NCBI GenBank assembly: GCA_039189765.1
Contig: JBCCYL010000024.1
Span: 1-64,000 of the forward strand
From: Cyanobacteria bacterium P01_F01_bin.150
GTDB taxonomy: Bacteria > Cyanobacteriota > Cyanobacteriia > CAKZMO01
Direction: 5' to 3'
DNA length: 64,000 bases
The notes beneath the pieces were generated by a model, which was not told the DNA's origin, did no database searches, and saw only the letters and a list, made by a program, of their open reading frames with translations. How positions within the stretch are numbered: position 1 is the first letter of the stretch; each line of letters begins with the position of its first letter. Position numbers and translations under genes: made by a program. Positions 4,324-61,776 of the stretch are shown here, in pieces.

Positions 4324-4399
4324 TGGCTAAACGTACAGGATTCGAACCTGCTACAGTCAGATTAACGGTCTGATGCTCTACCAATTGAGCTAACGTTTA
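4324..4399 (-). tRNA. tRNA-Asn (anticodon GTT), 76 nt with encoded CCA; unusual C at position 33
   Basis: Hand-folded cloverleaf: acceptor TAAACGT/ACGTTTA, D-stem GCTC/GAGC, anticodon stem TCAGA/TCTGA with loop CCGTTAA, T-arm GCAGG-TTCGAAT-CCTGT, discriminator G, CCA. Confidence 0.7.
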
Positions 4400-4402
4400 A
4401 GT

Positions 4403-4478
4403 TGGTACACGATGTAGGATTCGAACCTACGAATTCCGGATTTTAAGTCCAGTGCCTATTCCACTCGGCTAATCGCGT
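4403..4478 (-). tRNA. Non-canonical tRNA, 76 nt, anticodon UAA (Leu-decoding) but class-I architecture (5-nt variable loop), encoded CCA
   Basis: Hand-fold: acceptor ACGCGAT/ATCGTGT (one G-U), D-stem GCC/GGC, anticodon stem CTGGA/TCCGG (one U-G) with loop CTTAAAA, variable AATTC, T-arm GTAGG-TTCGAAT-CCTAC, discriminator A, CCA. Confidence 0.5.
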
Positions 4479-4646: not shown

Positions 4647-7600
4647 TCAGAGACCGTCACACAATCTCTTATCTTCGTCTCTAAGCTCAACCGGGTTATG
4701 GGCAACATGAAAGCGAAGCCAATCACAGCCATGAGCTACCATTGCATCCAAGCTAAGTGCCTTTAAATCCCAGAGTTTAATCGTCTTGTCTGAACTGCCG
4801 CTAATGAGGGTCTTGCCATTAGGACTGAAACTCACACTGGTGACCCAATCGTCATGGCCTATGAAGCTGCGGAGTTGCTGACCAGTCGTCACATCCCAGA
4901 GTTTGATTGTTTTATCCGCGCTGCCGCTAACGAGAGTCTTGCCATCGGCACTGAATCTGACACCCATGACCCAATTGTCATGACCTATAAAGTTGCGGAT
5001 TTCCTCTCCGGTCGTCACATCCCAGAGTTTGATCGTTTTGTCTGAACTGCCGCTAACGAGGGTCTTACCATCAGGACTGAAACTCACACTATTGATCCAA
5101 TCGTCATGACCTGTAAAGCTGCGGAGTTCCTTCCCGGTTGCCACATCCCAGAGTTTGATCGTCTTGTCCGTACTGCCGCTAATGAAGGTCTTACCATCGG
5201 CACTGAAACTCACACTATTAACCGACTCGTCATGGCCTATGAAGCCGCGAAGTTCCTCCCCGGTCGTCACATCCCAGAGTTTGATTGTTTTATCCGCGCT
5301 GCCGCTAACGAGAGTCTTGCCATCGGCACTGAAACTCACACTATTAACCGACTCGTCATGGCCTGTGAAGCTGCGGAGTTGCTCCCCAGTCTCCACATCC
5401 CAGAGGTTGATTGTCTTATCCGTACTGCCGCTAATGAGGGTCTTACCATCAGCACTGAAACTCACACTCATGACCCACAGGTCATGACCTGTAAAGCTAC
5501 GGAGTTCCTCCCCGGTCTCCACATCCCAGAGTTTGATCGTCTTGTCTGAACTGCTGCTAACGAAGGACTTGCCATCGGGACTGAAACTCACACTACTGAC
5601 CAACTGGTCATGACCTGTAAAGTTGTGGGGTTGCTCCCCAGTCTCCACATCCCAGAATTTGATTGTCTTGTCTAAACTGCTGCTAACAAGGGACTTGCCA
5701 TCGGGGCTAAAACTCACACTTATGACTGACTCGTTATGACCTGTGAAGCTACGGATTTCCTGCCCAGTCGCCACATCCCAGAGCTTGATCGTTTCGTCCG
5801 CACTGCCGCTAACAAGAGTCTGACCATCGGGGCTGAAACTGACCGTGACTGGCTCGTCATGACCTACAAAGCTGCGGAGTTGCTCCCCGGTCGCCACATC
5901 CCAGAGTTTGATCGTCTTGTCCGAACTTCCGCTAACGAGGGTCTGGCCATCAGGACTGAAACTCACACTAATGACCGCCTCATCATGACCTGTAAAGCTG
6001 CGGAGTTGCTCCCCAGTCGTCACATCCCAGAGTTTGATCATCGTGTCCGCACTGCCGCTAACGAGGGTCTGGCCATCAGAACTGAAACTGACACTACTGA
6101 ACGACTCGTCATGACCTGTGAAGCTGCGAAGTTGCTCCCCAGTGGCCACATCCCAAAGTTTGGCTGTCTTGTCCGCACTGCCGCTAACGAGGGTCTGGCC
6201 ATCAGGACTGAACCTGACACGCAAGACGTGCCTGTCATGGCCTGTGAAGCTGCGGAGTTCTTTCCCGGATTCCACATCCCAGAGTTTGATCGTCTTGTCC
6301 GCACTGCCGCTAACGAGGGTCTGGCCATCGGGGCTAAAACCGACACTCCAGACCCAATTGTCATGGCCTGTAAAGCTGTTGAGTTGCTCCCCGGTCACTA
6401 CATCCCAGAGTTTGACCGTCGTGTCATCACTGCCGCTAACGAGGGTCTGGCCATCGGGACTAAAACTGACACTCCTGACCCAACCGTCATGGCCTGTGAA
6501 GCTACGAACCTTATTACTCTTTAACATAACTTGCTGTAATGCATTCAGCCCCTCTGGTTGAGTAATTTGGTACTTCTGAAGAATAGTGCCTGCTCGAATG
6601 GCTTCCATCCACGCCTCAAAATCTTTACCTTCATTTAAAAGCGTTAATGAACCAAGCCCTGATGATCGCGCCTGGCTCAACTCGGCTTGTTTGATCGCTT
6701 TCTCCGCTCGTTTTAGTTGCTGTACCGCAACACCCCCACCTACCAATGCTAATACCAGCAACGATGCCAACCCCCCAATCACTAGCCGTTGCAGACGGAC
6801 CGATCGCTGCTGATTCATCTCCACCACCAACCGACTTGCTGTCACATACTCCCCCTGCAACGCCGTCGGACTCGGCTGCTTCTCCACTGCTCCCAACAAC
6901 CACTGCTCCGCCTCAGCCAAGTCACTCCCCCGCAGCAGCACATCCTCCCGTCGCCCCTTCTTATCCCACTCGATCGCCTTTACCAACAACTGCGTGTGAA
7001 ACCGCAAATGCTCCGGGTCCGTATCCAACGTCCGCAGCAGCTCCTTAAAATTGGTATCAAACTCCCCCTTATTCGCCGTAAAATCAATCCACTGCACCTT
7101 CGCCAACTCCGGATGCAAGTCCTTCGGATTCACCGGACGATGCAGCACCGTCACCATCCGCTTATTCAGCTTCGCCGCATACTCTACCTCATCAGCACAG
7201 TACGGAGACCTCACCGCCCGAGGCGACAGCACAAACAGAAAAAAATTCGACGTTTCAATTCCCTTGTAAATCTCCTGCTGAAAATCCGCCCCCGACGCAA
7301 TACTTTCCTGATCAAACCAGGTGCGCTTCCGCTGTCGTTGCAACGCATTATTTAACCGCCGGGCAAAATCTGAATCCGCCCGCGAATAGGAAATAAACAC
7401 ATCCGGAGCCACCGCCGCCGTCTGACTTTGACTCGCCTCAATAAAATCCTCCTGAATCTCCGTTGGCCCCTGCCCATCCTTCGCCTTCGCCACCTCCCGC
7501 CACGCCAGCGCATGTTGCAACTCATAGCCCTGAAGCAAAATACAGGGATTGCGCTGCTGCCGCTCCCACTTTAGCGCCTTGGTCAACAGCACCTTATGCT

Positions 7601-8717
7601 CCTTGTGATAGGTCGCATCCTGCTTTAACACCCGCAGCAGATCATCCTCATCCTGGAGATAATCCGCCTCCGTTTCATTGTCCGTCAGGTCAATATATTG
7701 GCGATTGCGCAGGAACACCGGAATCTCAGCCTCCTCCACCTGCCCCGCCAGCATAATAATCAGCCGCTTATTCAGTTGCAGCGATCGCTCCAATTCCATC
7801 TGACAATACTTCGACTTCAGCGAATGGGACGACATCAGCAACAGCACATTATCCGCCTGCTCTACCCCACGGGCGATCGCTCCCTCAAAATCATCCCCAT
7901 ACTCAATATCCGCCCGATAGCTCCAGGTAGTGATGCCGGAGCGCATAAGCGATCGCCTCACCGTCTCCGTCATCGCCCCATCTTCCTCCGCATGGGCCAA
8001 AAACACCTGGGTCATCAAGTTGTCGCCATTCTTGATGCTCTCGGTAATGTACTCATAATGCAAATCCGTCGGCCACAGAGGCGGCTGCTTATCCGCAAAC
8101 CGAACCGCCAGCCACTCCACCGCCTCTTGTTTATCCTCCCCAGTCAACAAGTAGCGGGTCTGCTTCTGATGTCGTTCCCACTCCAGTGCCTGATTCAGCA
8201 ACACCGTATGCTGATGCACATAGCCTTTTTCCAACTCCAGCAGCGCCAATATCTGCTGCAACGACTGCTCAAAATCATTAATCCCTTCCTTACACTGCAC
8301 CCAGTTAATTTTGCCGATTTCAGGATGCATATTTGTGTGGCAGGAATGCAGTCCCTCCGATTCATACTCAGCCCACTGGTCATCCGTGCCATCCAGATTG
8401 CGCTGCTGCCAGATCTCTTGGTCAATGTTCTCTACATGCAGCAGGGGAATAATCCGCTTTTTCCGCTTCAGCGCCAACTCAATTTCCAGTCGGCAATAGG
8501 CCGAATTGGTGGCATGGGGCGCAATGACAAACAGGAAATTATCCGCTTTTTCAATGCCATCATCAATTTGCTTTTGGTAATCTACCCCCAACGGAATATC
8601 TTCAAAATCAAACCAGACGGTGTAGCCCAACTCAACTAAGCGATCGTTCAGGTTCTTGGCAAAGTGCTTACTGTCGGCACGACCATAGGAAATAAAGACA
8701 TCTTGGAGAGGATTCAT
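4647..8717 (-). CDS. Giant multidomain protein: three tandem TIR domains (aa ~5-135, ~236-325, ~438-530), single TM helix (aa ~645-666), 14 WD40 repeats (two predicted 7-bladed propellers)
   Basis: TIR signatures DVFISYGRADS.. and DVFISYSRADSDFARRL.., divergent middle TIR VFLAHAEEDG..; each TIR followed by conserved H..LL..A.EWE...R..LL.G..L..A..WL module; hydrophobic LVIGGLASLLVLALVGGGVAV; 14x GHD..V.SV.FSPDG..L.SGS.D.TIKLWDV repeats. Confidence 0.85.
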   Translation of the reverse strand: MNPLQDVFISYGRADSKHFAKNLNDRLVELGYTVWFDFEDIPLGVDYQKQIDDGIEKADNFLFVIAPHATNSAYCRLEIELALKRKKRIIPLLHVENIDQEIWQQRNLDGTDDQWAEYESEGLHSCHTNMHPEIGKINWVQCKEGINDFEQSLQQILALLELEKGYVHQHTVLLNQALEWERHQKQTRYLLTGEDKQEAVEWLAVRFADKQPPLWPTDLHYEYITESIKNGDNLMTQVFLAHAEEDGAMTETVRRSLMRSGITTWSYRADIEYGDDFEGAIARGVEQADNVLLLMSSHSLKSKYCQMELERSLQLNKRLIIMLAGQVEEAEIPVFLRNRQYIDLTDNETEADYLQDEDDLLRVLKQDATYHKEHKVLLTKALKWERQQRNPCILLQGYELQHALAWREVAKAKDGQGPTEIQEDFIEASQSQTAAVAPDVFISYSRADSDFARRLNNALQRQRKRTWFDQESIASGADFQQEIYKGIETSNFFLFVLSPRAVRSPYCADEVEYAAKLNKRMVTVLHRPVNPKDLHPELAKVQWIDFTANKGEFDTNFKELLRTLDTDPEHLRFHTQLLVKAIEWDKKGRREDVLLRGSDLAEAEQWLLGAVEKQPSPTALQGEYVTASRLVVEMNQQRSVRLQRLVIGGLASLLVLALVGGGVAVQQLKRAEKAIKQAELSQARSSGLGSLTLLNEGKDFEAWMEAIRAGTILQKYQITQPEGLNALQQVMLKSNKVRSFTGHDGWVRSVSFSPDGQTLVSGSDDTTVKLWDVVTGEQLNSFTGHDNWVWSVGFSPDGQTLVSGSADKTIKLWDVESGKELRSFTGHDRHVLRVRFSPDGQTLVSGSADKTAKLWDVATGEQLRSFTGHDESFSSVSFSSDGQTLVSGSADTMIKLWDVTTGEQLRSFTGHDEAVISVSFSPDGQTLVSGSSDKTIKLWDVATGEQLRSFVGHDEPVTVSFSPDGQTLVSGSADETIKLWDVATGQEIRSFTGHNESVISVSFSPDGKSLVSSSLDKTIKFWDVETGEQPHNFTGHDQLVSSVSFSPDGKSFVSSSSDKTIKLWDVETGEELRSFTGHDLWVMSVSFSADGKTLISGSTDKTINLWDVETGEQLRSFTGHDESVNSVSFSADGKTLVSGSADKTIKLWDVTTGEELRGFIGHDESVNSVSFSADGKTFISGSTDKTIKLWDVATGKELRSFTGHDDWINSVSFSPDGKTLVSGSSDKTIKLWDVTTGEEIRNFIGHDNWVMGVRFSADGKTLVSGSADKTIKLWDVTTGQQLRSFIGHDDWVTSVSFSPNGKTLISGSSDKTIKLWDLKALSLDAMVAHGCDWLRFHVAHNPVELRDEDKRLCDGL

Positions 8718-9936: not shown

Positions 9937-10338
9937 CTAGCCCATAAGAATGACTTTATCGAGCACATGAATAATGCCATTATCCGCTTCAAGGTCCGCA
10001 GCGACAACTGAAGCATTTTTTACCTCAAATCCACTGGATGAGCGAATAGGAATCACAGTCCCCTCTACAGAGGTAACCGTGCCCATGTCTTCTAACTCTT
10101 TTTGGGTAAACTTACCAGACACAACATGATAGGTAAGAATGCGAGCGAGCTGAGGAATATTCTGCACAAGCGTTTGAATAGTTCCGGGTGGAAGTTTAGC
10201 AAACGCTTCATCTGTGGGTGCAAAAACGGTAAACGGACCTGGAGACTTTAGAGTATCGACTAAATCAGCCGCTTTTACGGCAGTTACCAGGGTTTCAAAA
10301 TTACCTGCACCAACGGCAATATCAACAATATCGGGCAT
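9937..10338 (-). CDS. cupS: Fasciclin (FAS1) domain protein; by position directly downstream of cupA, candidate CupS subunit of NDH-1MS
   Basis: FAS1 motifs ..[16 protein letters not shown]...L..N...L..IL.YHVV.G.....E.......T..G..I...S.G..V.NA.VV..D.EA.NG.IHV.D.V; operon position after ndhF3-ndhD3-cupA. Confidence 0.6.
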
Positions 10339-10344
10339 GGGAAA

Positions 10345-10527
10345 AACGATTTTGGATTTTAGATTTTGATGGAGGAGTTGGGGAGTTAGGGCGTTTAAGG
10401 AGTTAGGGCGTTTAAGGAGTTAGGGCGTTTAAGGAGTTAGGGCGTTTAGGGAGTTTAAGGAGTTGGGAGTTGGATAGTCTGCCTTCTGCCTTCTGCCTTC
10501 TGCCTTCTGCCTTTTTTCCTTCTGCCT
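10345..10527. repeat. STRR-like tandem repeat array: (TTTTGGA/TTTTAGA)n, (GGAGTTAGGGCGTTTAA)4, (TGCCTTC)6; fills entire cupA-cupS intergenic space
   Basis: Direct reading; 17-mer repeated 4x, heptamer TGCCTTC 6x, ends at cupA stop codon and begins 7 nt after cupS ATG. Confidence 0.9.
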
Positions 10528-11835
10528 TTACCGATAGTCTTGGCTTTGAATATCCCTTAGCCGGGCTTCCGGACGTTTAAACCGATCGAGCTGAGTTTGA
10601 AAAAATTCGCGATTAGCCTGTAAGTGAGCTGGGTTTGGATCATCAAGGGGGTAAAGCAGGGCTTCTCGTAAGGCATGGATAACAGCAGAGGTGACGTTGT
10701 ACATGGAGCGCTGAAAGCTGACCCCCAGCTGAGTGATCATATCGTCTTCTCCTCGGCAATATTGCTTGTAATAGTCCACCAAGTAGGACGGCAGGAAGTG
10801 GAGCATATCTTGCATTAGCAATGTGGGTGGAATTCCTGCCGTCCCGACAGGAAAGAGATCGGCGTAAAGAATACCGTAGTGAAACTCTTCTTGATTGTTA
10901 GGAACCTGCTGGGCTTGAGCGTTATAGGATTTGGTGCCCCGGAAAGGGGATGTGCGGTAAAAAATGGCTTCAACATAGGGCAGCGCAGCTTCATAGAGCC
11001 ACATAAACCCTTTAGATTTTGGAATAATTTCGTAGCATTCGCCATCAATATAAGCGTGATGGTAAATAGGACGCCCGGACACAGCAAAGATGCCGTTCAC
11101 AAGAAAATCCATCGCTTCCGGAACAGTCTTTAAATTGCCCTCATCGTAAAGATCGGACATTTCGAAAAAGACGGCCGCCATCACCTCCCAGAACAAACCC
11201 AAGTTGGAATACTGAGATAGTTGCCGTACTTGTTCAATAAACATGTCAGGAAAAAGCTTATATAGTCCCAACATAACGGGATTGCTCTTGAAGTAGGCGC
11301 GAATGGCACGATCCGCGTTAGCCTTATATTCCTCAGTATCCAAGTAGGCATCAAACTTATTTACGGGAGCATACATGTGACGATGCCAAAGCATTGCCCT
11401 CATACAGGCCTCGGCAAATTCCATGTTGATGCGATCGTGATTCAAATGATGCAGCAGTCGAGGAAGGGTACGATTTGCACCTCCCTTCTTCATAAAGGCA
11501 AGCAGTTCAGGGTGCGCTTTTTCAGTGCCACGCCAAATTCTTAGGTCAGCATTGTCACCAGCATATTTGCTGGGGAGATCGAGATAGTCTTGGGAAATAA
11601 AGTACTTAAAAGCGGGAAGGGGATTGAGAAATACCTGTTCGGCAATGTAAAGCAAATCACGCCAGTAGAAATCCATTGGTACCGCATAGGCCTTATAGAT
11701 ACCAATAATTTGCATCAGGTTTTCAGGGGTATCCGGTAGCATGGACCCGCCTGCTTCCAGACGATGAATCACCTCAGCAAATTCATGATTTGCTGGGGGA
11801 AGGGCCGTAGAAGCAGGTGCGGTGGTAGTGGTCAT
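10528..11835 (-). CDS. cupA: CO2 hydration protein CupA/ChpY of the NDH-1MS high-affinity CO2 uptake complex
   Basis: ~435 aa, ChpX/ChpY family features, positioned immediately downstream of ndhD3 on the same strand as in canonical ndhF3-ndhD3-cupA-cupS operons. Confidence 0.8.
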   Translation of the reverse strand: MTTTTAPASTALPPANHEFAEVIHRLEAGGSMLPDTPENLMQIIGIYKAYAVPMDFYWRDLLYIAEQVFLNPLPAFKYFISQDYLDLPSKYAGDNADLRIWRGTEKAHPELLAFMKKGGANRTLPRLLHHLNHDRINMEFAEACMRAMLWHRHMYAPVNKFDAYLDTEEYKANADRAIRAYFKSNPVMLGLYKLFPDMFIEQVRQLSQYSNLGLFWEVMAAVFFEMSDLYDEGNLKTVPEAMDFLVNGIFAVSGRPIYHHAYIDGECYEIIPKSKGFMWLYEAALPYVEAIFYRTSPFRGTKSYNAQAQQVPNNQEEFHYGILYADLFPVGTAGIPPTLLMQDMLHFLPSYLVDYYKQYCRGEDDMITQLGVSFQRSMYNVTSAVIHALREALLYPLDDPNPAHLQANREFFQTQLDRFKRPEARLRDIQSQDYR

Positions 11836-53684: not shown

Positions 53685-54422
53685 ATGTATCAGCCTTTTC
53701 GTGAGCATTTAGAAACTGAGATATTTACTCGATTTGACGACCTTCAAGCTCGTCCTATTCCTCCTGGATTAGAGTCGAACGTTAGGAGTCATGGACGCCA
53801 CCCTGCGACGATTCAGAGCTGGTGTTATCAGTGCGGTCCTTTGCGAAAAATTCGTTACACCTACATTGATGCAGGTCCTGCGGCTCAGATATTTAACAGC
53901 GTCATTTATCCCGATCATCGCTACGATTTGCCATTCTTGGGATTAGACTTTCTGTCATTTGGCAGCGTTAAAAATCTTGTAGTTCTCGATTTTCAGCCCT
54001 TATTTCAAGATGAAGATTATCAAGAAAAGTATATTCATCCTCTGAGGGCTTTGCATGCGAAGTATCCAGATCTAGCTCAAGATCTGGAAATGAAGTACTA
54101 CGATGCAAACCAGTATTTCTCTAAGTGCCTGCTGTTTGCTAAAACCGATCCGGAAACCATTAAAACTAGGCTGTTTGAGGCCTTTAAAGACTATCTCAAC
54201 TTGTATTGGGAGTTGCTAGATAATGCTGAGCCATTTACTGATGCAGCGGACATCGAACGTATTGCTCAGGCTCAAAGAGACTATGATCAGTACAGTGCCG
54301 ATCGTGATCCTGCGTCAGGGTTATTCAAGAGCTATTTTGGTCACGAGTGGGCTGAGAAGTTTCTTTACGAATTCCTGTTCGAAGATGCTGAACCCGCTGT
54401 AGTGGGAGCGACTCGCACATGA
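53685..54422 (+). CDS. pebA: 15,16-dihydrobiliverdin:ferredoxin oxidoreductase
   Basis: FDBR family; ..[55 protein letters not shown].. ; 4-bp ATGA overlap with following FDBR paralog. Confidence 0.8.
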
Positions 54423-55192
54423 CTTTGTATCAATCATTCTTAGACTATGCGATCGCCCAGCTAGAAGAACACCTTGATATTCAACCCTATCCTATTCCGG
54501 AAGGCTTTGAGACAAAGTCTGCCATTGTCGGTAAAGGAAAGCATCAAAACGAGGTGCAAACCGATAGCTATGGTTCTTGTTCTCCAAAGCTTCGCCAGAT
54601 AAGGGCGGCCCATGTTAAGGGAGGGGGTGCGTTTCAGGTCCTTAATTTTGTGATTTTTCCCCACATTAACTACGATTTGCCATTCTTTGGGGCTGATTTA
54701 GTGACCTTGCCTTCAGGCCATTTGATTGCCATTGATATGCAGCCCCTGTTTCGGGATGAGCCTGAGTATCAGGCGAAGTATGCCGATCCAGTGATGCCCA
54801 TTTTTGAAAAGCATCAGCAAAATTTGCCTTGGGGTGGTGATTTTCCTGATGAAGCACAGCAGTTTTTCTCTCCGGCTTTTCTATGGACTCGTCCCAAGGA
54901 AACATCCGATGTAGAGACTCACGTGTTTGATGCGTTCAAAGACTATCTCCACGCCTACATTAATTTTGTTAAAAAGGCTGAACCTGTAACGGATGAAGCG
55001 AAGCTTCAGGAGATTGAAGCGGCTCAGTTACGTTACCTTCGGTATCGCGCAGAAAAGGATCCTGCCAGGGGGATGTTGACTCGCTTTTACGGCCCAGAAT
55101 GGACCGAAGAATATATTCACGGATTTTTGTTTGACCTAGAGCAAAACCTTGACCAAGAGCGACAATTAGCTAGGGCTGTGGTATTGGCTTGA
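54419..55192 (+). CDS. pebB: Phycoerythrobilin:ferredoxin oxidoreductase
   Basis: Second FDBR paralog (257 aa) ..[49 protein letters not shown].. ; canonical pebA-pebB order. Confidence 0.8.
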
Positions 55193-55927: not shown

Positions 55928-56899
55928 ATGAGTCCATCTGCCACTCAGACGTCTTCTATCTCTGCTCCAGACGCATCCAAGTCTGGCTCTGGGGCTGTAT
56001 TAAATTCAGGATCGGTTGACGCGATCGCATCTTCTTCCAAGCCAGACATGTCATCTAAATCTGTCGATAATCTGTCTGATTCTCTAGAGCATAAATTGGA
56101 TACCCTTCGGCAGCTATTTTTAGACATGGAACAAGCTTTAATTGCTTACTCTGGAGGTGTAGACAGTACGCTGGTGGCTAAGGTCGCCTATGATGTGCTG
56201 GGCGATCGCGCCGTTGCCATCACCGCAGATTCTCCCTCTTTGCTACCGGATGATTTAGAAGATGCCCGCATTCAGGCTGCGGCCATCGGTATTGCCCATG
56301 AAGTTGTGGCCACCCATGAGATGGATAATCCGGCCTACACGTCAAACCCAGTAAACCGCTGTTACTTTTGCAAGAGCGAACTACATGACACCCTAAAACC
56401 ACTGGCCCTGGAACGGGGATTTCCCTATGTGGTAGACGGAGTCAATGCGGATGACCTACAGGACTACCGCCCAGGGATTCAAGCCGCGAAGGAACGGGGA
56501 GCGCGATCGCTCTTGGCCGAAGTGGGCGTTAGCAAGAAGGAAGTCCGTCAGCTATCCAAAGCGCTAGGATTAAGTTGGTGGGATAAGCCTGCTCAGCCCT
56601 GTTTAAGCTCACGTTTCCCCTATGGTGAGGAAATTACCGTGGAGAAATTGCGGCGAGTGGGTCAAGCAGAACGGTATTTAAGAAAGTTGGGATTTACGGA
56701 TATTCGTGTCCGCTCAGATGGTGATACGGCTCGAATTGAGGTTTTACCGGATAAAATTCAGTCTTTTGTAGCCACAACTGATTTGCCAGCACTAGTGGCA
56801 AAGCTACAAGACTACGGCTTCTTTTATGTCACTCTGGATTTGGAGGGCTATCAAAGCGGTAAGTTAAACCGTGTGCTAGCCAGCCATATTCATAAATAA
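55928..56899 (+). CDS. LarE-like PP-loop ATP pyrophosphatase (TIGR00268 family), with Ser-rich N-terminal extension
   Basis: PP-loop ..LIAYSGGVDSTLVA.., ..NPVNRCYFCK.. and ..PCLSSRFPYGEEIT.. conserved in LarE/ThiI-like sulfur transferases. Confidence 0.75.
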   Translation: MSPSATQTSSISAPDASKSGSGAVLNSGSVDAIASSSKPDMSSKSVDNLSDSLEHKLDTLRQLFLDMEQALIAYSGGVDSTLVAKVAYDVLGDRAVAITADSPSLLPDDLEDARIQAAAIGIAHEVVATHEMDNPAYTSNPVNRCYFCKSELHDTLKPLALERGFPYVVDGVNADDLQDYRPGIQAAKERGARSLLAEVGVSKKEVRQLSKALGLSWWDKPAQPCLSSRFPYGEEITVEKLRRVGQAERYLRKLGFTDIRVRSDGDTARIEVLPDKIQSFVATTDLPALVAKLQDYGFFYVTLDLEGYQSGKLNRVLASHIHK

Positions 56900-56954
56900 G
56901 CTTGTATAGAATGAGGGGTTTGCCTCTAATCACATCGCCGCTCAGGAATTATCC

Positions 56955-57197
56955 ATGCTGTGCTTGTATCTGTTGCAAATCAGTCTGGACCAAGATGGAG
57001 ACGGGGGGGGCTATTTTTGCCCAGCAGCTCACGGTGATGACACCCTGATTGGTGGTGTCTGTAGCAATATCTTTGTCCTTCGGAAGGGCTACGGTACCGA
57101 CCTGATTCGTGACTTCAATATCGGGGAAGACCTAGTTCGTCTCCAGGGTAGCCTCAGCCAAAGGACTCATCAAGCTATTTGGGCAGCATTTTATTAA
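56955..57197 (+). CDS. Orphan 80-aa ORF resembling a C-terminal fragment of an RTX/hemolysin-type Ca-binding protein (possible gene remnant)
   Basis: ..GDDTLIGG...NIF.L.KGYGTDLIRDFNIGEDLVRL.. resembles terminal repeats of RTX proteins; no upstream coding continuation. Confidence 0.25.
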   Translation: MLCLYLLQISLDQDGDGGGYFCPAAHGDDTLIGGVCSNIFVLRKGYGTDLIRDFNIGEDLVRLQGSLSQRTHQAIWAAFY

Positions 57198-57199
57198 GG

Positions 57200-57880
57200 T
57201 TAAACCACTTTCGCCGATACTTTATCAGTCACATCAGCGGCATTAAGGGCAACCATCACGACCTCTGAAGGATCATAAATAAGATCATAGGACTCTTCAG
57301 TTGCTAGAGCTTGCATTGCCTCGCGAACCTTTTTGTCGGCTTCAGCTTTAATCTTCTGAGCATATTGCTCTTTGAGATTCTTGATGTCTGCCTGATCTTG
57401 CTTTATTTTTTCGATGAAACCCTTAGCTCGTTGATAGAGCGCTGGCATTATGGTGAGCTGGTAATCGTATGAATACTCTGAAAGTTCTAACTCCCTGTCC
57501 TCAAGCCTCCAATCCTGCTCAATAAAGTACACCTTTGATTTCCCATACCAACCACCGTAGCGACGTTGATCAACGGCAGAAACGAATTCTACTGGATCGG
57601 GTTGGCCAAGGTCTTCCATATAGGCTGCTAGCTCAGGAAAACGCTCTTTAAATGGCTTCCCTCCTACGAGAATTTCACTCGTACCATAATAACCGCACAT
57701 TTCTTTTTCTTTCTCTTGCTGTTCAGCATATAGCTTTGCAAAGCTATCCTTATGATTTTCTATGGATGCTTGTTCACGTAAAATGTCTGCGGGAGGGTTG
57801 GCCTCTAAGTCTTTAATTTTCTCGGATGAATACTTTTCTACAATTGTGCTGACTGAAACGTGGCCAACTTTTATACTCAT
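57200..57880 (-). CDS. Hypothetical protein with C-terminal coiled coil and OmpH/Skp-like tail; AT-rich; immediately downstream of STAND NTPase gene
   Basis: 226-aa ORF, K/E/Q-rich coiled coil (..IKQDQADIKNLKEQYAQKIKAEADKKVREAMQAL..), tail ..YDLIYDPSEVVMVALNAADVTDKV.. ; no signal peptide. Confidence 0.45.
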   Translation of the reverse strand: MSIKVGHVSVSTIVEKYSSEKIKDLEANPPADILREQASIENHKDSFAKLYAEQQEKEKEMCGYYGTSEILVGGKPFKERFPELAAYMEDLGQPDPVEFVSAVDQRRYGGWYGKSKVYFIEQDWRLEDRELELSEYSYDYQLTIMPALYQRAKGFIEKIKQDQADIKNLKEQYAQKIKAEADKKVREAMQALATEESYDLIYDPSEVVMVALNAADVTDKVSAKVV

Positions 57881-58074
57881 GATGATTTTTCTTGAACTAG
57901 GACATGGTTAGCTAATCATCAAATTGTAAAATCCAGGTAAAATGGGCCAAGTCAGGGAGATAAATCTTTTGTAAGGTGGGTACATCCCTAGAAGCAAATG
58001 AGAAAAGCGATAGTGAAACCCATGCAGGTTCTTGGTTTCGCTCCTGATTCCGTTGGTAAATTTTTTTGACATGG

Positions 58075-61000
58075 CTATAGTTCTTGGACAGCCCCTAGCT
58101 GTTCCAATGTCGATATTTCAGACTCCGTCAGTCCTTCAATATCCGCAATATTCATGCCATCATAGGGTTCTCGGTTTTTGATGATCTTCAGACATTTGCC
58201 TGTTTCGACGGACCATAGACGAATGGTTTTATCATCGCTGCCGCTAGCCAGTGTTTTGCCATCAGGGCTAAAATCAACGGCCCATACCGTATTTCCGTGG
58301 CCATTCAGGACATATACTCGCTTCCCCGTCTGCATATTCCATAATCGGACCGTACGATCTGCGCTACCGCTGGCTATCCACTGGCCATCTGGACTGACCG
58401 CAACAGAAATCACCCAATTTTCATGCCCTTTGAAAATTTGCTCACAAGCTCCTGTACAGGTATCCCAACGCCTGATGGTTTGGTCCATGCTGCTGCTGAC
58501 TAAAAAGTCTCCTTGCGGAGAAAACGCAATGCACCAGATGCCGCTGCTATGGCCTTTCCAGGTCGCTACACAGTCATAGGTCTCTAGGTCCCAAAGCTTA
58601 ATGGTGCGATCATAAGATCCGCTGGCCAATAGATTTTTTTCAGGATGAAAGGCAACTGAGCTGACCCAATGCCGATGCCCCGTTAGCGTTTGCTTACAGT
58701 TGCCCGTACGTAGGGTCCACAGCTTGATACTCTGATCAGCACTGCCGCTGGCTAAAAGGGTCGTTGCTGGATTGAAGGCAACAGACCAGACCGATTTTGT
58801 ATGGCCTGAAAAGCGGCGGTGCGTTCTTTTTTTACTATTATTGGGTTGCTTATTGAGTCGCCATAGGTGTACTCCGCCATCTTCATTGCCACTGGCTAAC
58901 TGCTGTCCATTTGGGCTAAACGCAACAGTCCAGATAACTTCTTGCACCTCTTTTAGGGTCTCTGAGGTGTTCTCCGCAGCCATATTCCACAGGTGCAAGC
59001 TGCGATCGCCCTGACCACTAGCCAACTGACGACCATCCGGACTATACGCCAGGGTCCACACCCAGTTGCCGCTGCCCTGCAATGCCTTTAGACACTGGCC
59101 ACTGCCCCGGTCCCAGAGCCGCAGGGTGCGATCTTCGCTGCCGCTGGTCAAATAGTCGCCGTCTGGACTAAAGGCCACGGACCAGACCCAATTACTATGT
59201 CCGGTTAGCACCCTCAGACACTGGCGTGTTTTCACATCCCACAAGCGCACCGTCTGATCCGCACTGCCACTGGCCAGCAGGGTGCCATCGGGGCTAAAGG
59301 TCACCATCCAAATCCAGTTACTATGCCCCTCTAAGGTATGCAAACACTGTCCCGACGGCATTTCCCACAGGCGAATGGTTTGATCGGCGCTACCGCTGGC
59401 CAACTGGCTGCCATCAGGGCTAAAGGCAACCGACCATACGCCATGCTTATGCTCTGCTAGGGTCTGCAAACACTCCCCCGTAAGTGATGACCAGAGTCTA
59501 ATCGTGCAGTCGGCGCTGCCGCTGGCCAAGTAGTCTCCGTTGGGTGCAAAGGCAACCGACCAAATGCCGTGCCCGTGTCCGCCTAAAATCTGCCGACACT
59601 CCCCTGTCTCAATGTCCCACAAGCGTACAGTACGATCAGCGCTGCCGCTGGCTAGCACGGTGCCATCAGGGCTAAAGGCGACGGACATCACCCAGTTTTG
59701 ATGTCCGTCAAAGGTCTGTAAGCACTCCCCTGTCTCCACATCCCAAAGGCGTACGGTGCGATCAGCGCTGGCGCTGGCCAGCAAGATGCCATCGGGGCTA
59801 AACGCAACGGAGCACACCCAGTTCTGATGCCCTTCAAAGGTGGCGATGTGGGAGCCAATATCGCCAGTGGCTCCTGGTGATGATGCAGGGGTTAGGTGCG
59901 ATCGCCACAGCCAGATTTCGCCGTTTGTATCCCCCGTTGCCAGTAAATTATCTTCCGTTCTAAACGTGATGGCGCGAATGCTGCCAAAAGGCTGATTAAA
60001 CAATGAATGGGTCAGATCAGAGCCAGAAAAGTTGACGTTGTGCAGCGTCAGTCCCCGCAGTGAGGTTTGGCGAATGGTGAGGTTAGAAAAGTCGTAGCCC
60101 TTTAGATCGACCCCCAGATGGTGCAAAAGGGTCAGGACATTGCCGCCTAGATAGCTGCGATCGCGCGTTGGCAGCGATTGCACCGATTCCAGGCAATCAG
60201 TCAGGGTTGAGGCTAAGGCGTTTATTGACGACCATTCTGTCTGTAGCTGCGACCGAATGGGGCCTAAGATAAGGCGAATTTGCGCCTGGTAGATGTAGTC
60301 ACTGCTATTTGCTTTCACCAAACCATGGGACCGCAGTCGTTTAGGTGTTTGGCTCCGAATCTCCTCACACACTTGCTCGATCAGCTCACCGGTAAAGTAA
60401 TCCATAATGACCGCCTGCTGAGTGATGCGAGAGCCACTTTTTTCCAGCAACGAACGCCGCTCCAGCGAGTCTATGGCCTGCAATAGCTTGTTTAGCGGCA
60501 CGGTTTCTACCATATCGGTCTGTAGCGATCGCCACACCACAGGCTCTCGACGAATCGCTAGCCAGTACATAATGTCTTGTTCCAGCGTCGTTAAGCGCTT
60601 CATCTGTCGCGCTAGCAGTTGCCTAATATCGCCAAAAATAAACAGATCCTGCTGTGCTAATTCCAAAAAAGCAGAAAGGCTGCCATCGAAATAATCCCTA
60701 ACCGCTGCGGCAATAATCTTAAGCGCCAGAGGATTGCCACCATAGACGTCAATTAGCTGATTCCATTCCGCCTCGGTTCCTGAAAATGAACGATTCACTT
60801 GGTCCGTGGCCTTGATTAGCGCCTGCCCCGCCGTAATCGAAAGCCCCGAAAGCTGAAAGCTGCGGATTGGCGATGTATCGATCGCCTGAATCGAGATTTC
60901 CTTGGGTAGCTCACGGGAGGTCAGCAAAATGCTGCTGCTGTGGTCGGTTTCACTCAGGGTTTTTAGCAGTTGACCATAGTCTTCATAGCCTGGAAGGTAA

Positions 61001-61776
61001 ATACCTGCACCATCTCCTTCCCCAAATAACGATTCAACATTATCTAGAACAATTAGACAGCGATGATTTCGCAGGCAGGTCATCAAGGTTCGAATCTGAG
61101 CATCGATACTTTGAGTGGCACCATTATCAACCAGATCAACCATTGGCTGCTCAACAAAAAAGTTGAGTATACTCGCTAATATCTCCTGAATAGACGGGGC
61201 ATTTTTCAGACCACGCCATATTAAATAGTCAAAACGATCAGCGACTTGGTGCGCCAACTTTGCACTCAGCGTTGTTTTTCCCATGCCGCCGATACCACAG
61301 ATCGCCACAAGCCGACATCGGTCCTCAACCAGCCAGCTTTCCAGGGTTGTTAATACTTGTTCACGTCCAAAGAATACAGAACTATCGATCGCTTCCCCCC
61401 AATCTTGAGTCGCTTTGGCTGTAGCCTGATCTGTATCGCGTTGAGACGTATCTTTTTCAAGATTTTTTGGGGAAGCTTGGAGATTTTCTACTTCTCTTTC
61501 TTTGGAAGATCCTTCTTTGGAAGATAATCGTGAACTTGCTTTTGCCGGTAGCTCACGCTCTAAATCGGCAATATCTTCCCATTCCAGATTGAGCGTTGCG
61601 CAAAGTTCAGTAAATGTCGCAAAGTCAACAGGTTTGCCTCCTAAGAATTTCTTAACAGTTGCTAGGGAATAGCCTGCTCTTTCCGCTAAAGCACGTTGGG
61701 TTGGAAATCCGTTGCGTTGAATAGCAATGCGGAGGGTGTTCAAGCAGACTTGCTGGGCTTTGAGCGAACGAGGCAT
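58075..61776 (-). CDS. STAND NTPase: N-terminal XRE-type HTH - NB-ARC/AAA (Apaf-1-like) - ~13 WD40 repeats
   Basis: HTH ..FPTQRALAERAGYSLATVKKFLGGKPV..; P-loop ..VAICGIGGMGKTTLSAKLAHQ.., Walker B ..CLIVLDNVE..; C-terminal GH..V.SVAFSPDG..LASGS.D.T.RLW repeats. Confidence 0.85.
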   Translation of the reverse strand: MPRSLKAQQVCLNTLRIAIQRNGFPTQRALAERAGYSLATVKKFLGGKPVDFATFTELCATLNLEWEDIADLERELPAKASSRLSSKEGSSKEREVENLQASPKNLEKDTSQRDTDQATAKATQDWGEAIDSSVFFGREQVLTTLESWLVEDRCRLVAICGIGGMGKTTLSAKLAHQVADRFDYLIWRGLKNAPSIQEILASILNFFVEQPMVDLVDNGATQSIDAQIRTLMTCLRNHRCLIVLDNVESLFGEGDGAGIYLPGYEDYGQLLKTLSETDHSSSILLTSRELPKEISIQAIDTSPIRSFQLSGLSITAGQALIKATDQVNRSFSGTEAEWNQLIDVYGGNPLALKIIAAAVRDYFDGSLSAFLELAQQDLFIFGDIRQLLARQMKRLTTLEQDIMYWLAIRREPVVWRSLQTDMVETVPLNKLLQAIDSLERRSLLEKSGSRITQQAVIMDYFTGELIEQVCEEIRSQTPKRLRSHGLVKANSSDYIYQAQIRLILGPIRSQLQTEWSSINALASTLTDCLESVQSLPTRDRSYLGGNVLTLLHHLGVDLKGYDFSNLTIRQTSLRGLTLHNVNFSGSDLTHSLFNQPFGSIRAITFRTEDNLLATGDTNGEIWLWRSHLTPASSPGATGDIGSHIATFEGHQNWVCSVAFSPDGILLASASADRTVRLWDVETGECLQTFDGHQNWVMSVAFSPDGTVLASGSADRTVRLWDIETGECRQILGGHGHGIWSVAFAPNGDYLASGSADCTIRLWSSLTGECLQTLAEHKHGVWSVAFSPDGSQLASGSADQTIRLWEMPSGQCLHTLEGHSNWIWMVTFSPDGTLLASGSADQTVRLWDVKTRQCLRVLTGHSNWVWSVAFSPDGDYLTSGSEDRTLRLWDRGSGQCLKALQGSGNWVWTLAYSPDGRQLASGQGDRSLHLWNMAAENTSETLKEVQEVIWTVAFSPNGQQLASGNEDGGVHLWRLNKQPNNSKKRTHRRFSGHTKSVWSVAFNPATTLLASGSADQSIKLWTLRTGNCKQTLTGHRHWVSSVAFHPEKNLLASGSYDRTIKLWDLETYDCVATWKGHSSGIWCIAFSPQGDFLVSSSMDQTIRRWDTCTGACEQIFKGHENWVISVAVSPDGQWIASGSADRTVRLWNMQTGKRVYVLNGHGNTVWAVDFSPDGKTLASGSDDKTIRLWSVETGKCLKIIKNREPYDGMNIADIEGLTESEISTLEQLGAVQEL

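Follow-up and report, generated by a model that had tools for sequence, protein, structure and literature searches.

In MalT- and GutR-type STAND activators, ligand-controlled, ATP-dependent oligomerisation of the STAND core drives DNA binding by a helix-turn-helix (HTH) domain (cited in PMC7159879). More generally, the bacterial STAND proteins that have been characterised are mainly NTP-dependent transcription regulators (PMC7159879; PMC10936776 for AfsR). The large SARP AfsR of Streptomyces, a demonstrated transcription activator, is composed of a SARP DNA-binding domain, an NB-ARC/NOD module and a TPR region (PMC10936776, PMC11301090). For the NB-ARC-WD40 proteins of multicellular cyanobacteria, a role as conflict systems has been widely proposed, and HTH domains are listed among the modules that occupy their effector position (PMC7159879, PMC12803255). 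The closest bacterial homologs of Apaf-1 are cyanobacterial, and STAND clades with and without defence functions are intermingled (PMC12803255). Furthermore, NB-ARC and WD40 are accessory domains of cyanobacterial sigma70-type proteins (PMC11119718).

We analysed a stretch of 64,000 nt from Cyanobacteria bacterium P01_F01_bin.150 (hereafter the window), in which a large gene with this domain composition is followed on the minus strand by a small one. Both open reading frames are present as originally predicted, at 58075..61776 (1233 aa) and 57200..57880 (226 aa). The large protein also has the anticipated Apaf-1/AP-ATPase layout, with an XRE-type HTH where an effector would be expected. Specifically, HTH_26 (PF13443) matches aa 15-73 (61558..61734, minus strand) with 26.8-29.8 bits against a gathering score of 22, which places the domain in the XRE/Cro-C1 family and predicts a DNA-binding output. 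NB-ARC (PF00931) matches aa 139-359 (60700..61362, minus strand) with 55.6 bits against a gathering score of 23.5. Within this nucleotide switch lie Walker A GIGGMGKTT (aa 161-169, with K167; 61270-61296, minus strand), Walker B CLIVLDNVE (aa 240-248, judged by the STAND pattern hhhhD[DN]) and the GLPL-type motif GGNPLAL (aa 346-352), all three at positions that do not vary in a core alignment of eight sequences. The protein belongs to the AP-ATPase/NB-ARC clade. We also considered the NACHT clade and rejected it: PF05729 reaches 20 bits against a gathering score of 26.7, and the segment LIVLDNVES is without the D[GAS]hDE signature that follows Walker B in the published definition (bioRxiv 10.1101/2022.07.19.500537).

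The C-terminal part of the protein is a predicted sensor made of WD40 repeats (PF00400; 556 bits in 13 stretches). By repeat parsing, the region from about aa 584 to 1210 (58147..60027, minus strand) divides into 14 units of 42 aa, which is sufficient for two seven-bladed propellers. A pentapeptide-repeat-like stretch (aa 556-595; 59992..60111, minus strand) leads from the helical domains into the propellers; its Pfam Pentapeptide score of 19 bits is below the cut-off of 20.2, and it is 70-87% conserved among orthologs. Identity between the WD40 repeats is 40-71% at the protein level, and the encoding DNA has a 126-nt period with 74-84% matches in the best pairs. These values speak against recent shuffling of the repeats, of which hyper-similar copies would be a sign.

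Among described proteins, AfsR is one of the closest parallels. It has the same order of N-terminal DNA-binding domain, NB-ARC-type NTPase and C-terminal repeat sensor, and it is the best bacterial relative of known structure (8k60, phmmer E 1.4e-3); the best solved relatives of the NB-ARC module are plant CNLs and AfsR, with E about 1e-3. The NCBIfam AfsR model gives E 3.3e-5, which is far below its cut-off. SARP/BTAD N-termini (BTAD, PF03704) occur in some distant homologs of the window protein. However, sequence similarity to AfsR is weak and confined to the P-loop region, and the sensor consists of two WD40 propellers rather than TPR. The DNA-binding domains also differ, being an XRE/Cro-type HTH in the window protein and an OmpR-type winged helix plus BTAD in AfsR. 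Neither Trans_reg_C nor BTAD matches the window protein, and it is thus not assigned a SARP DNA-binding domain. The likeness to MalT- and GutR-type activators is one of principle, an HTH joined to an ATP-dependent STAND core; no significant sequence match to these proteins was found, and MalT belongs to a different STAND clade and carries its LuxR HTH at the C-terminus. Cyanobacterial fusions of HTH or sigma70-r4 with NB-ARC and WD40 that are already in databases share the architecture with no substantive difference, and in JGI annotation homologs are named ‘WD40 repeat protein/transcriptional regulator with XRE-family HTH domain’. The HTH-NB-ARC-WD40 arrangement is a known and widespread cyanobacterial architecture, abundant and already annotated, to which the window protein adds a further example.

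The reference genomes contain at least 577 relatives of this protein, and among the 115 homologs whose N-terminus is intact some DNA-binding HTH is present in about three-quarters: 57 cluster with the XRE HTH of the query, 15 have another XRE type, six are LuxR-like, four are SARP/BTAD and four are other HTH-like domains. The N-terminal module of 28 of the 115 was not identified, and a recognisable enzymatic effector was found at the N-terminus in none. The commonest non-XRE N-terminal module (precomputed PF26355) returned nothing meaningful from Pfam, NCBIfam or a PDB profile search.

The window protein is sister to a Phormidesmis-type ortholog group, with 61-63% identity, and the HTH is the best-conserved domain in this comparison (76% between the window and the group, 88% inside the group). 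The WD40 region is colinear with that of the orthologs, having 11 gap positions in 610 residues, and is conserved as well as the NTPase core. In this it is unlike an arms-race sensor. The surroundings of the STAND gene vary even between close relatives. The Phormidesmis-type orthologs have a stable synteny with a membrane-protein gene and a transporter gene. The membrane-protein gene lies 3-95 nt downstream of the STAND gene in seven of eight close orthologs and at one further locus (L011), and encodes an unannotated protein of 280-320 aa with 8 TM segments; it is absent from the 64-kb window. An 80-aa RTX-like ORF was considered as a remnant of the RTX genes that lie near orthologs, to which it has no similarity.

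The gene that does lie downstream in the window encodes a signal-peptide-less protein with a Skp/OmpH-like tail, a feature of the original prediction that is borne out by OmpH (PF03938) at aa 157-224 (34.4 bits against a gathering score of 32.4). Aligned by hhalign to a genuine Skp (P0129), the 226-aa protein gives 94.9% probability and E 4e-8, and its top PDB match, both by profile and by Foldseek, is E. coli Skp. The homology with this periplasmic chaperone covers the C-terminal 46-70 residues, and the predicted order of strand, long helical hairpin and strands is also shared, with AF2 placing long helices at 31-65 and 144-193. The protein differs from Skp in an additional stretch of about 80 residues, poorly predicted, that is inserted in the helical arm, and in its N-terminus, MSIKVGHVSVSTIVEKYSS, which has no hydrophobic leader and thus no Sec signal peptide. 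The ORF begins at the first start codon following a stop, making an N-terminal extension impossible, and all relatives share the leaderless N-terminus, in contrast to the genuine Skp P0129, which does have a leader. Presumably, the protein is a cytoplasmic holdase-type chaperone.

Its family is tiny. We found three clusters in 5.8e9 proteins and seven hits in 1.84e9 representatives, amounting to two close and about four distant relatives in billions of sequences, and scans of genome contigs and metagenome contigs produced no match. Some family members are tandem paralogs beside a cold-shock gene. The gene had been described as AT-rich, which is true but mild: its GC content is 42.6%, compared with an ORF mean of 48.3 +/- 2.8%, and is the second lowest among 38 ORFs. 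Searches of phage and plasmid collections with tblastn yielded no match, and there is therefore no sign that the gene originated from a mobile element.

The two genes are separated by a non-coding spacer of 194 nt (57881..58074, minus strand). The small gene is thus downstream on the same strand as predicted, at a distance of 194 rather than 195 nt. No terminator-like site was predicted in the spacer after the STAND stop codon, and read-through co-transcription of the two genes may therefore occur. The spacer also carries a promoter-like site, TTGGCC-16-TACAAT (57950-57923, minus strand), and the small gene is probably a separate gene with its own promoter. Rfam gave no match in this long leader, either in a run on the whole window or in a permissive one on 56800-58200.

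An HTH this strongly conserved would be expected to have an operator that is conserved too; no candidate was found that is common to the upstream regions of both genes or conserved in orthologs. The two upstream regions share a single 8-mer, AATTTGAT, for which about 0.9 is expected by chance. Upstream of the orthologs a block, CTGGTTTAATG, is conserved; it has the look of a promoter element, and nothing in the window clearly corresponds to it. The closest homolog of the STAND gene has 75.6% nucleotide identity, and its similarity to the window ends about 10 nt upstream of the ATG.

We consider the most likely explanation, with somewhat better than even confidence, to be that the STAND protein is a signal-dependent transcription regulator in the style of AfsR and MalT and that the small gene is a separate, rare Skp/OmpH-like gene and an incidental neighbour. 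The original prediction had instead suggested that the small protein could be an effector or a cargo partner of the STAND sensor, to which a role as its chaperone partner can be added. The same strand, the short spacer and the missing terminator are consistent with a two-gene system of this type, and certain conflict systems are known to have a chaperone as third component, as TAC systems have SecB (cited in PMC7159879). However, the neighbourhoods of STAND homologs point the other way. No relative of the small protein is present at any of 79 genome loci (+/-8 kb) or five metagenome loci, the close orthologs have the conserved membrane-protein gene downstream instead, and a STAND neighbour is missing from those distant relatives of the small protein whose flanking DNA is long enough to show one. 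The contigs of its two close homologs end short of the upstream neighbour, and as far as public data allow, the small gene appears never to co-occur with NB-ARC-WD40 homologs. The promoter-like site within the spacer and the difference in GC content (51.2% for the STAND gene) also argue against a single unit. Reading the two proteins by eye revealed no apparent common motif, including a shared terminal amyloid or adaptor motif like those of NLR-associated BASS systems (bioRxiv 10.1101/2020.01.06.895854). The two-gene model is largely refuted by the missing co-occurrence, and we hold it to be highly improbable; the adjacency is a lineage-specific juxtaposition and not a functional pairing with a conserved partner.

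Local regulators often neighbour their target genes. The HTH-STAND protein might accordingly regulate its Skp-like neighbour, in this genome alone. A near-palindrome, ATGATTAGCTAACCAT (57904-57919), is suitably located to serve as a putative operator, directly downstream of the promoter-like -10 element and before the small-gene start codon. This near-palindrome, however, is neither conserved upstream of small-gene homologs nor present upstream of the STAND gene. Furthermore, the HTH is nearly invariant in orthologs that are without the small gene, and a different, conserved target is therefore implied. We judge a regulator-target pair restricted to this genome to be decidedly improbable. A role in defence or programmed cell death, which had also been suggested, fares a little better. 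Here the protein would be an NLR-like (Avs-like) sensor whose WD40 propellers recognise a phage or other invader protein and whose HTH is the effector; on oligomerisation of the NB-ARC modules it might, for example, set off a protective or suicidal transcription programme or bind invader DNA. Apaf-1-like NB-ARC-WD40 layouts are enriched in multicellular cyanobacteria and tied to conflict systems (PMC7159879, PMC12803255), and the very large, paralog-rich family and the shifting contexts of the STAND gene would suit such a role. The other large WD40 sensor noted originally, the triple-TIR protein, does exist in the window (4647-8717, minus strand), but it is about 50 kb away.

Several observations weigh against defence. 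Apaf-1-like, Avs and bNACHT proteins have the same NB-ARC/STAND core with WD40 beta-propellers after it, but carry N-terminal caspase-like, nuclease, TIR or other death effectors and are found in defence contexts, whereas the window protein has a DNA-binding HTH. No PADLOC Avs or bNACHT model matches its NTPase core; the sole significant PADLOC match is HEAT-ARM_XIII, on the WD40 part, with PDC-M16A at E 0.014. A search for a cell-killing effector (nuclease, protease, TIR, SIR2 or pore former) at the N-terminus or in the adjacent gene recovered none, only the HTH and the Skp-like protein. The flanking genes have housekeeping functions (pebA/pebB-type bilin reductases, DUF2237, a PP-loop ATPase, an SDR and an MGMT-like protein), and the Phormidesmis-type synteny likewise includes no defence genes. 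Together with the colinear, conserved sensor and the mostly DNA-binding N-termini of the clade, these data make a defence or cell-death role unlikely.

For the preferred reading, transcription regulation by the STAND protein, we propose a mechanism by analogy with the characterised regulators. The two WD40 propellers would bind a conserved ligand or protein, and this binding would free the NB-ARC module from autoinhibition. Exchange of ADP for ATP in the NB-ARC module would then permit oligomerisation, which would gather the N-terminal XRE-type HTHs on DNA and thereby change transcription.

Two further readings, which we jointly rate as quite unlikely, go beyond this model. First, the 226-aa protein may belong to a class of Skp-like holdases, cytoplasmic and without a signal peptide, that has not been described before; about seven clusters are known. 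Second, the HTH-NB-ARC-WD40 clade may normally form a conserved pair with the 8-TM membrane protein, the two making up a signalling module linked to the membrane; this genome would then have lost the partner, and the Skp-like gene would have been recruited in its stead, either as a target or as a new partner.

The analysis adds little that is new about the STAND protein itself, which is of a known kind and abundant in cyanobacteria. Its useful outcome is a negative one, in that adjacency suggested a sensor-effector pair and comparative genomics indicates an incidental pairing. It also uncovered a better candidate for experiments, namely the pair that the orthologs conserve, STAND gene plus unannotated membrane-protein gene. 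This pair is the starting point for learning what cyanobacterial HTH-STAND proteins sense and regulate.

Both open reading frames of the original prediction are present on the minus strand, a 1233-aa HTH-NB-ARC-WD40 protein (58075-61776, hereafter the STAND protein) and, after an intergenic gap of 194 nt, a 226-aa Skp/OmpH-like protein (57200-57880). WD40 families swamp a Pfam scan of the whole STAND protein (PF00400, 556 bits), and its N-terminal domains were resolved by restricting the scan to the first 599 residues. This portion carries HTH_26 at aa 15-73 (26.8 bits, or 29.8 bits when scanned alone; gathering score 22) and NB-ARC at aa 139-359 (55.6 bits; gathering score 23.5), while its match to the NACHT profile lies under threshold. 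A pentapeptide-like stretch at aa 556-595 is sub-threshold in Pfam. A Walker A motif (GIGGMGKTT, 161-169), a Walker B motif (CLIVLDNVE, 240-248) and a GLPL-type motif (GGNPLAL, 346-352) can be read from the sequence; no NACHT-type D[GAS]hDE was seen on inspection of Walker B. Repeat parsing divides the WD40 part into 14 units of 42 aa (mutual identity 40-71%; a 126-nt period in the DNA), enough for two seven-bladed propellers. The WD40-coding half of the gene (58075-59976) has a GC content of 53.8% (GC3 56.8%; local peaks of ~59% at 59000-59800), and the HTH/NB-ARC half (59977-61776) is markedly lower at 48.6%.

The N-terminal modules of its homologs, domain conservation, defence models and gene context, and solved relatives point to a signal-controlled transcription regulator, rather than a defence sensor, as the most likely identity of the STAND protein. 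Among 115 homologs with intact N-termini, 57 belong to the XRE HTH cluster of the query, 15 carry another XRE type, six a LuxR/GerE-like module, four a SARP/BTAD module and four other HTH-like modules. A further 28 (P0030-P0122; ~90 aa, alignment A4) begin with a helical module labelled PF26355 in precomputed Pfam annotation (consensus ..VFRQSWEGKSYxEIAxxxGYDxxYIKxxGSxLWxxLSxxLGEKVTKxNLQ). This module resembles an HTH by eye, and Pfam, NCBIfam and PDB sequence searches returned no significant match to it. No nuclease, protease, TIR or comparable effector is recognisable in any of the 115 N-termini.

The nearest orthologs form a Phormidesmis-type group (loci L014-L020 and L022) with 73-84% mutual identity and 61-63% identity to the window protein; the ortholog at L021 stands at 54-57%. 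Conservation peaks in the HTH (76% between window and group, 88% within the group), compared with 62% and 80% for NB-ARC and 67% and 78.5% for the WD40 region, which is colinear with 11 gap positions across 610 residues. A pathogen sensor under rapid diversification would not be expected to show such a pattern. Against solved structures, the STAND core matches plant CNLs, with AfsR as the best bacterial match, all weakly (E ~1e-3). AfsR is an established transcription activator in which a DNA-binding domain is followed by NOD and TPR (PMC10936776, PMC11301090), and bacterial STANDs have been characterised mainly as NTP-dependent transcription regulators (PMC7159879). Defence and non-defence STAND clades are intermingled (PMC12803255). 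NB-ARC and WD40 are also catalogued as accessory domains of cyanobacterial sigma70-type proteins (PMC11119718). JGI already labels homologs 'WD40 repeat protein/transcriptional regulator with XRE-family HTH domain'. In such a regulator, a signal bound by the WD40 propellers would cause nucleotide exchange, leading to oligomerisation and in turn to cooperative DNA binding by the HTHs. No operator was found in the upstream regions of the STAND gene, the small gene and the STAND orthologs.

The original prediction suggested that the protein may act in defence or programmed cell death, a role that we consider rather unlikely. Proteins combining NB-ARC with WD40 typify the conflict systems of multicellular cyanobacteria, the STAND family is rich in paralogs and its gene contexts are variable. 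However, PADLOC yielded no Avs or bNACHT match, its sole significant match falling on the WD40 part, and the genes on either side have housekeeping functions (two ferredoxin-dependent bilin reductases, DUF2237, a PP-loop ATPase, an SDR and an MGMT-like DNA-binding protein). Together with the conserved HTH and colinear WD40 region, these results leave the proposed role unsupported. The triple-TIR WD40 protein invoked alongside it does exist (4647-8717, minus strand; 1356 aa), but it lacks NB-ARC and lies ~50 kb from the STAND gene. It has three TIR_2 domains (266 bits), ~14 WD40 repeats and, as judged from its sequence, an apparent transmembrane segment, and its gene is also GC3-rich (60.8%). 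The bilin reductase genes are adjacent (53685-55192, plus strand), a pebA/pebB-like pair ~2 kb from the two-gene locus that is consistent with a phycoerythrin-containing cyanobacterium. Two adjacent tRNA genes (4327-4478, minus strand) are the only Rfam gathering-threshold matches in the window.

The small gene is genuine, though its relatives are very few. It had been called AT-rich; its GC content (42.6%) does fall below the ORF mean (48.3 +/- 2.8%), though only mildly. Searching 5.8 billion proteins by word index recovered only the protein itself and two homologs (57-59% identity), and a profile run exhaustively against 1.84 billion representatives gave seven matches in total, including two full-length tandem paralogs (P0126 and P0127), one further distant relative (P0125) and a genuine Skp with a signal peptide (P0129). 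Both termini are strongly conserved in the family. Long helices are predicted in the window protein, and it has no signal peptide. Its relationship to Skp/OmpH is indicated by Pfam OmpH at aa 157-224 (34.4 bits, barely over the gathering score of 32.4), by hhalign of the family with genuine Skp (94.9% probability, E 4e-8, last 46 columns), and by E. coli Skp as top match both in PDB profile searches (weak, E 0.22) and in Foldseek with a second AF2 model (E ~1-2, TM <=0.46 on Skp). On contig L008, two distant Skp-like paralogs without signal peptides (10001-10606 and 11120-11689; 36% mutual identity) sit either side of a cold-shock-domain gene in housekeeping surroundings, a context that hints at a stress-chaperone role for the family.

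The proposal that the small gene is a partner of the STAND gene fails on several grounds. A scan with the HTH+NB-ARC core aligned with its closest homologs (A5), covering one genome per GTDB species, found more than 577 stretches coding for STAND relatives. In 79 of these loci, fetched with flanks of up to 8 kb, no small-protein relative was detected, whether by tblastn with six members of the family or by a family HMM run over every ORF >=50 aa, nor was one present in five metagenomic STAND loci. The contigs of the two close small-gene homologs are short, and their 217-229 nt of upstream sequence is stop-rich in every frame and shows no WD40 gene end; downstream in L001 is a cupin gene, which differs from the window. 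Distant relatives lie either in housekeeping contexts (histidine kinase, cold-shock protein, RNase R) or on the short contig L013, whose called neighbours lack family annotation and evident P-loop/WD40 motifs; no STAND gene is nearby. The closest known STAND homolog (P0011, locus L093; 75.6% nt identity) loses all similarity to the window ~10 nt upstream of the STAND start codon. The spacer holds a promoter-like site (TTGGCC-16-TACAAT; -10 at 57928-57923, minus strand), although no terminator-like site was found after the STAND stop. A two-gene system is extremely improbable. A lineage-specific relation in which the STAND protein regulates the small gene is very unlikely. A near-perfect 16-bp palindrome (ATGATTAGCTAACCAT, 57904-57919) does lie between the promoter-like -10 and the small-gene ATG, but the leaders of the small-gene homologs do not conserve it.

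All small-gene homologs share a stop-rich leader of at least 217 nt, in which an Rfam search found nothing. Directly 5' of the start codon is a conserved TGTCCTA(G)TTC...ATCA(G)TG block (window 57881-57910, minus strand; L001:190-220; L002:200-229) that may be a translation-initiation or regulatory element. Convergent with the small gene, with 2 nt between stops, is an 80-aa ORF (56955-57197, plus strand) whose product contains GDDTLIGG, an RTX-like Ca-binding motif. This ORF has no family match and no similarity to RTX genes near STAND orthologs, and may be a gene fragment.

The orthologs have a different conserved neighbour. In seven of eight ortholog loci and in L011, a multi-pass membrane protein of 281-321 aa is encoded on the same strand 3-95 nt past the STAND stop (L014:7773-8675, L015:11690-12652, L016:11974-12843, L018:3897-4811, L019:11719-12597, L020:11689-12543, L021:5361-6203 and L011:4582-5337). 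It shows an apparent internal duplication (WVWPLKPFNTRFLGAIYL / AWLWPLDVFHSQLYSSIFL) and is likely a genuine partner of this STAND clade. Several loci also share, upstream, a divergent small secreted protein with FKLQTLRLSELDARNKSE repeats (minus strand; L014:3416-3832, L015:7337-7717, L016:7059-7643, L019:7419-7763, L020:7383-7733) and, further upstream, a SulP-family transporter (minus strand; L015:5693-7006, L019:6088-7389, L020:5958-7259). These conserved neighbours, the membrane protein included, have no Pfam or NCBIfam annotation, and the membrane protein, repeat protein and transporter are absent from the 64-kb window. Since the more distant L021 retains the membrane-protein gene, its pairing with the STAND gene is probably ancestral and the arrangement in the window derived.

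The HTH-NB-ARC-WD40 architecture is already known, widespread and annotated, and the window protein is one more such protein. Two by-products are possibly worth follow-up: the conserved pairing of STAND orthologs with an 8-TM membrane protein, and the tiny family of Skp-like proteins that lack a signal peptide.
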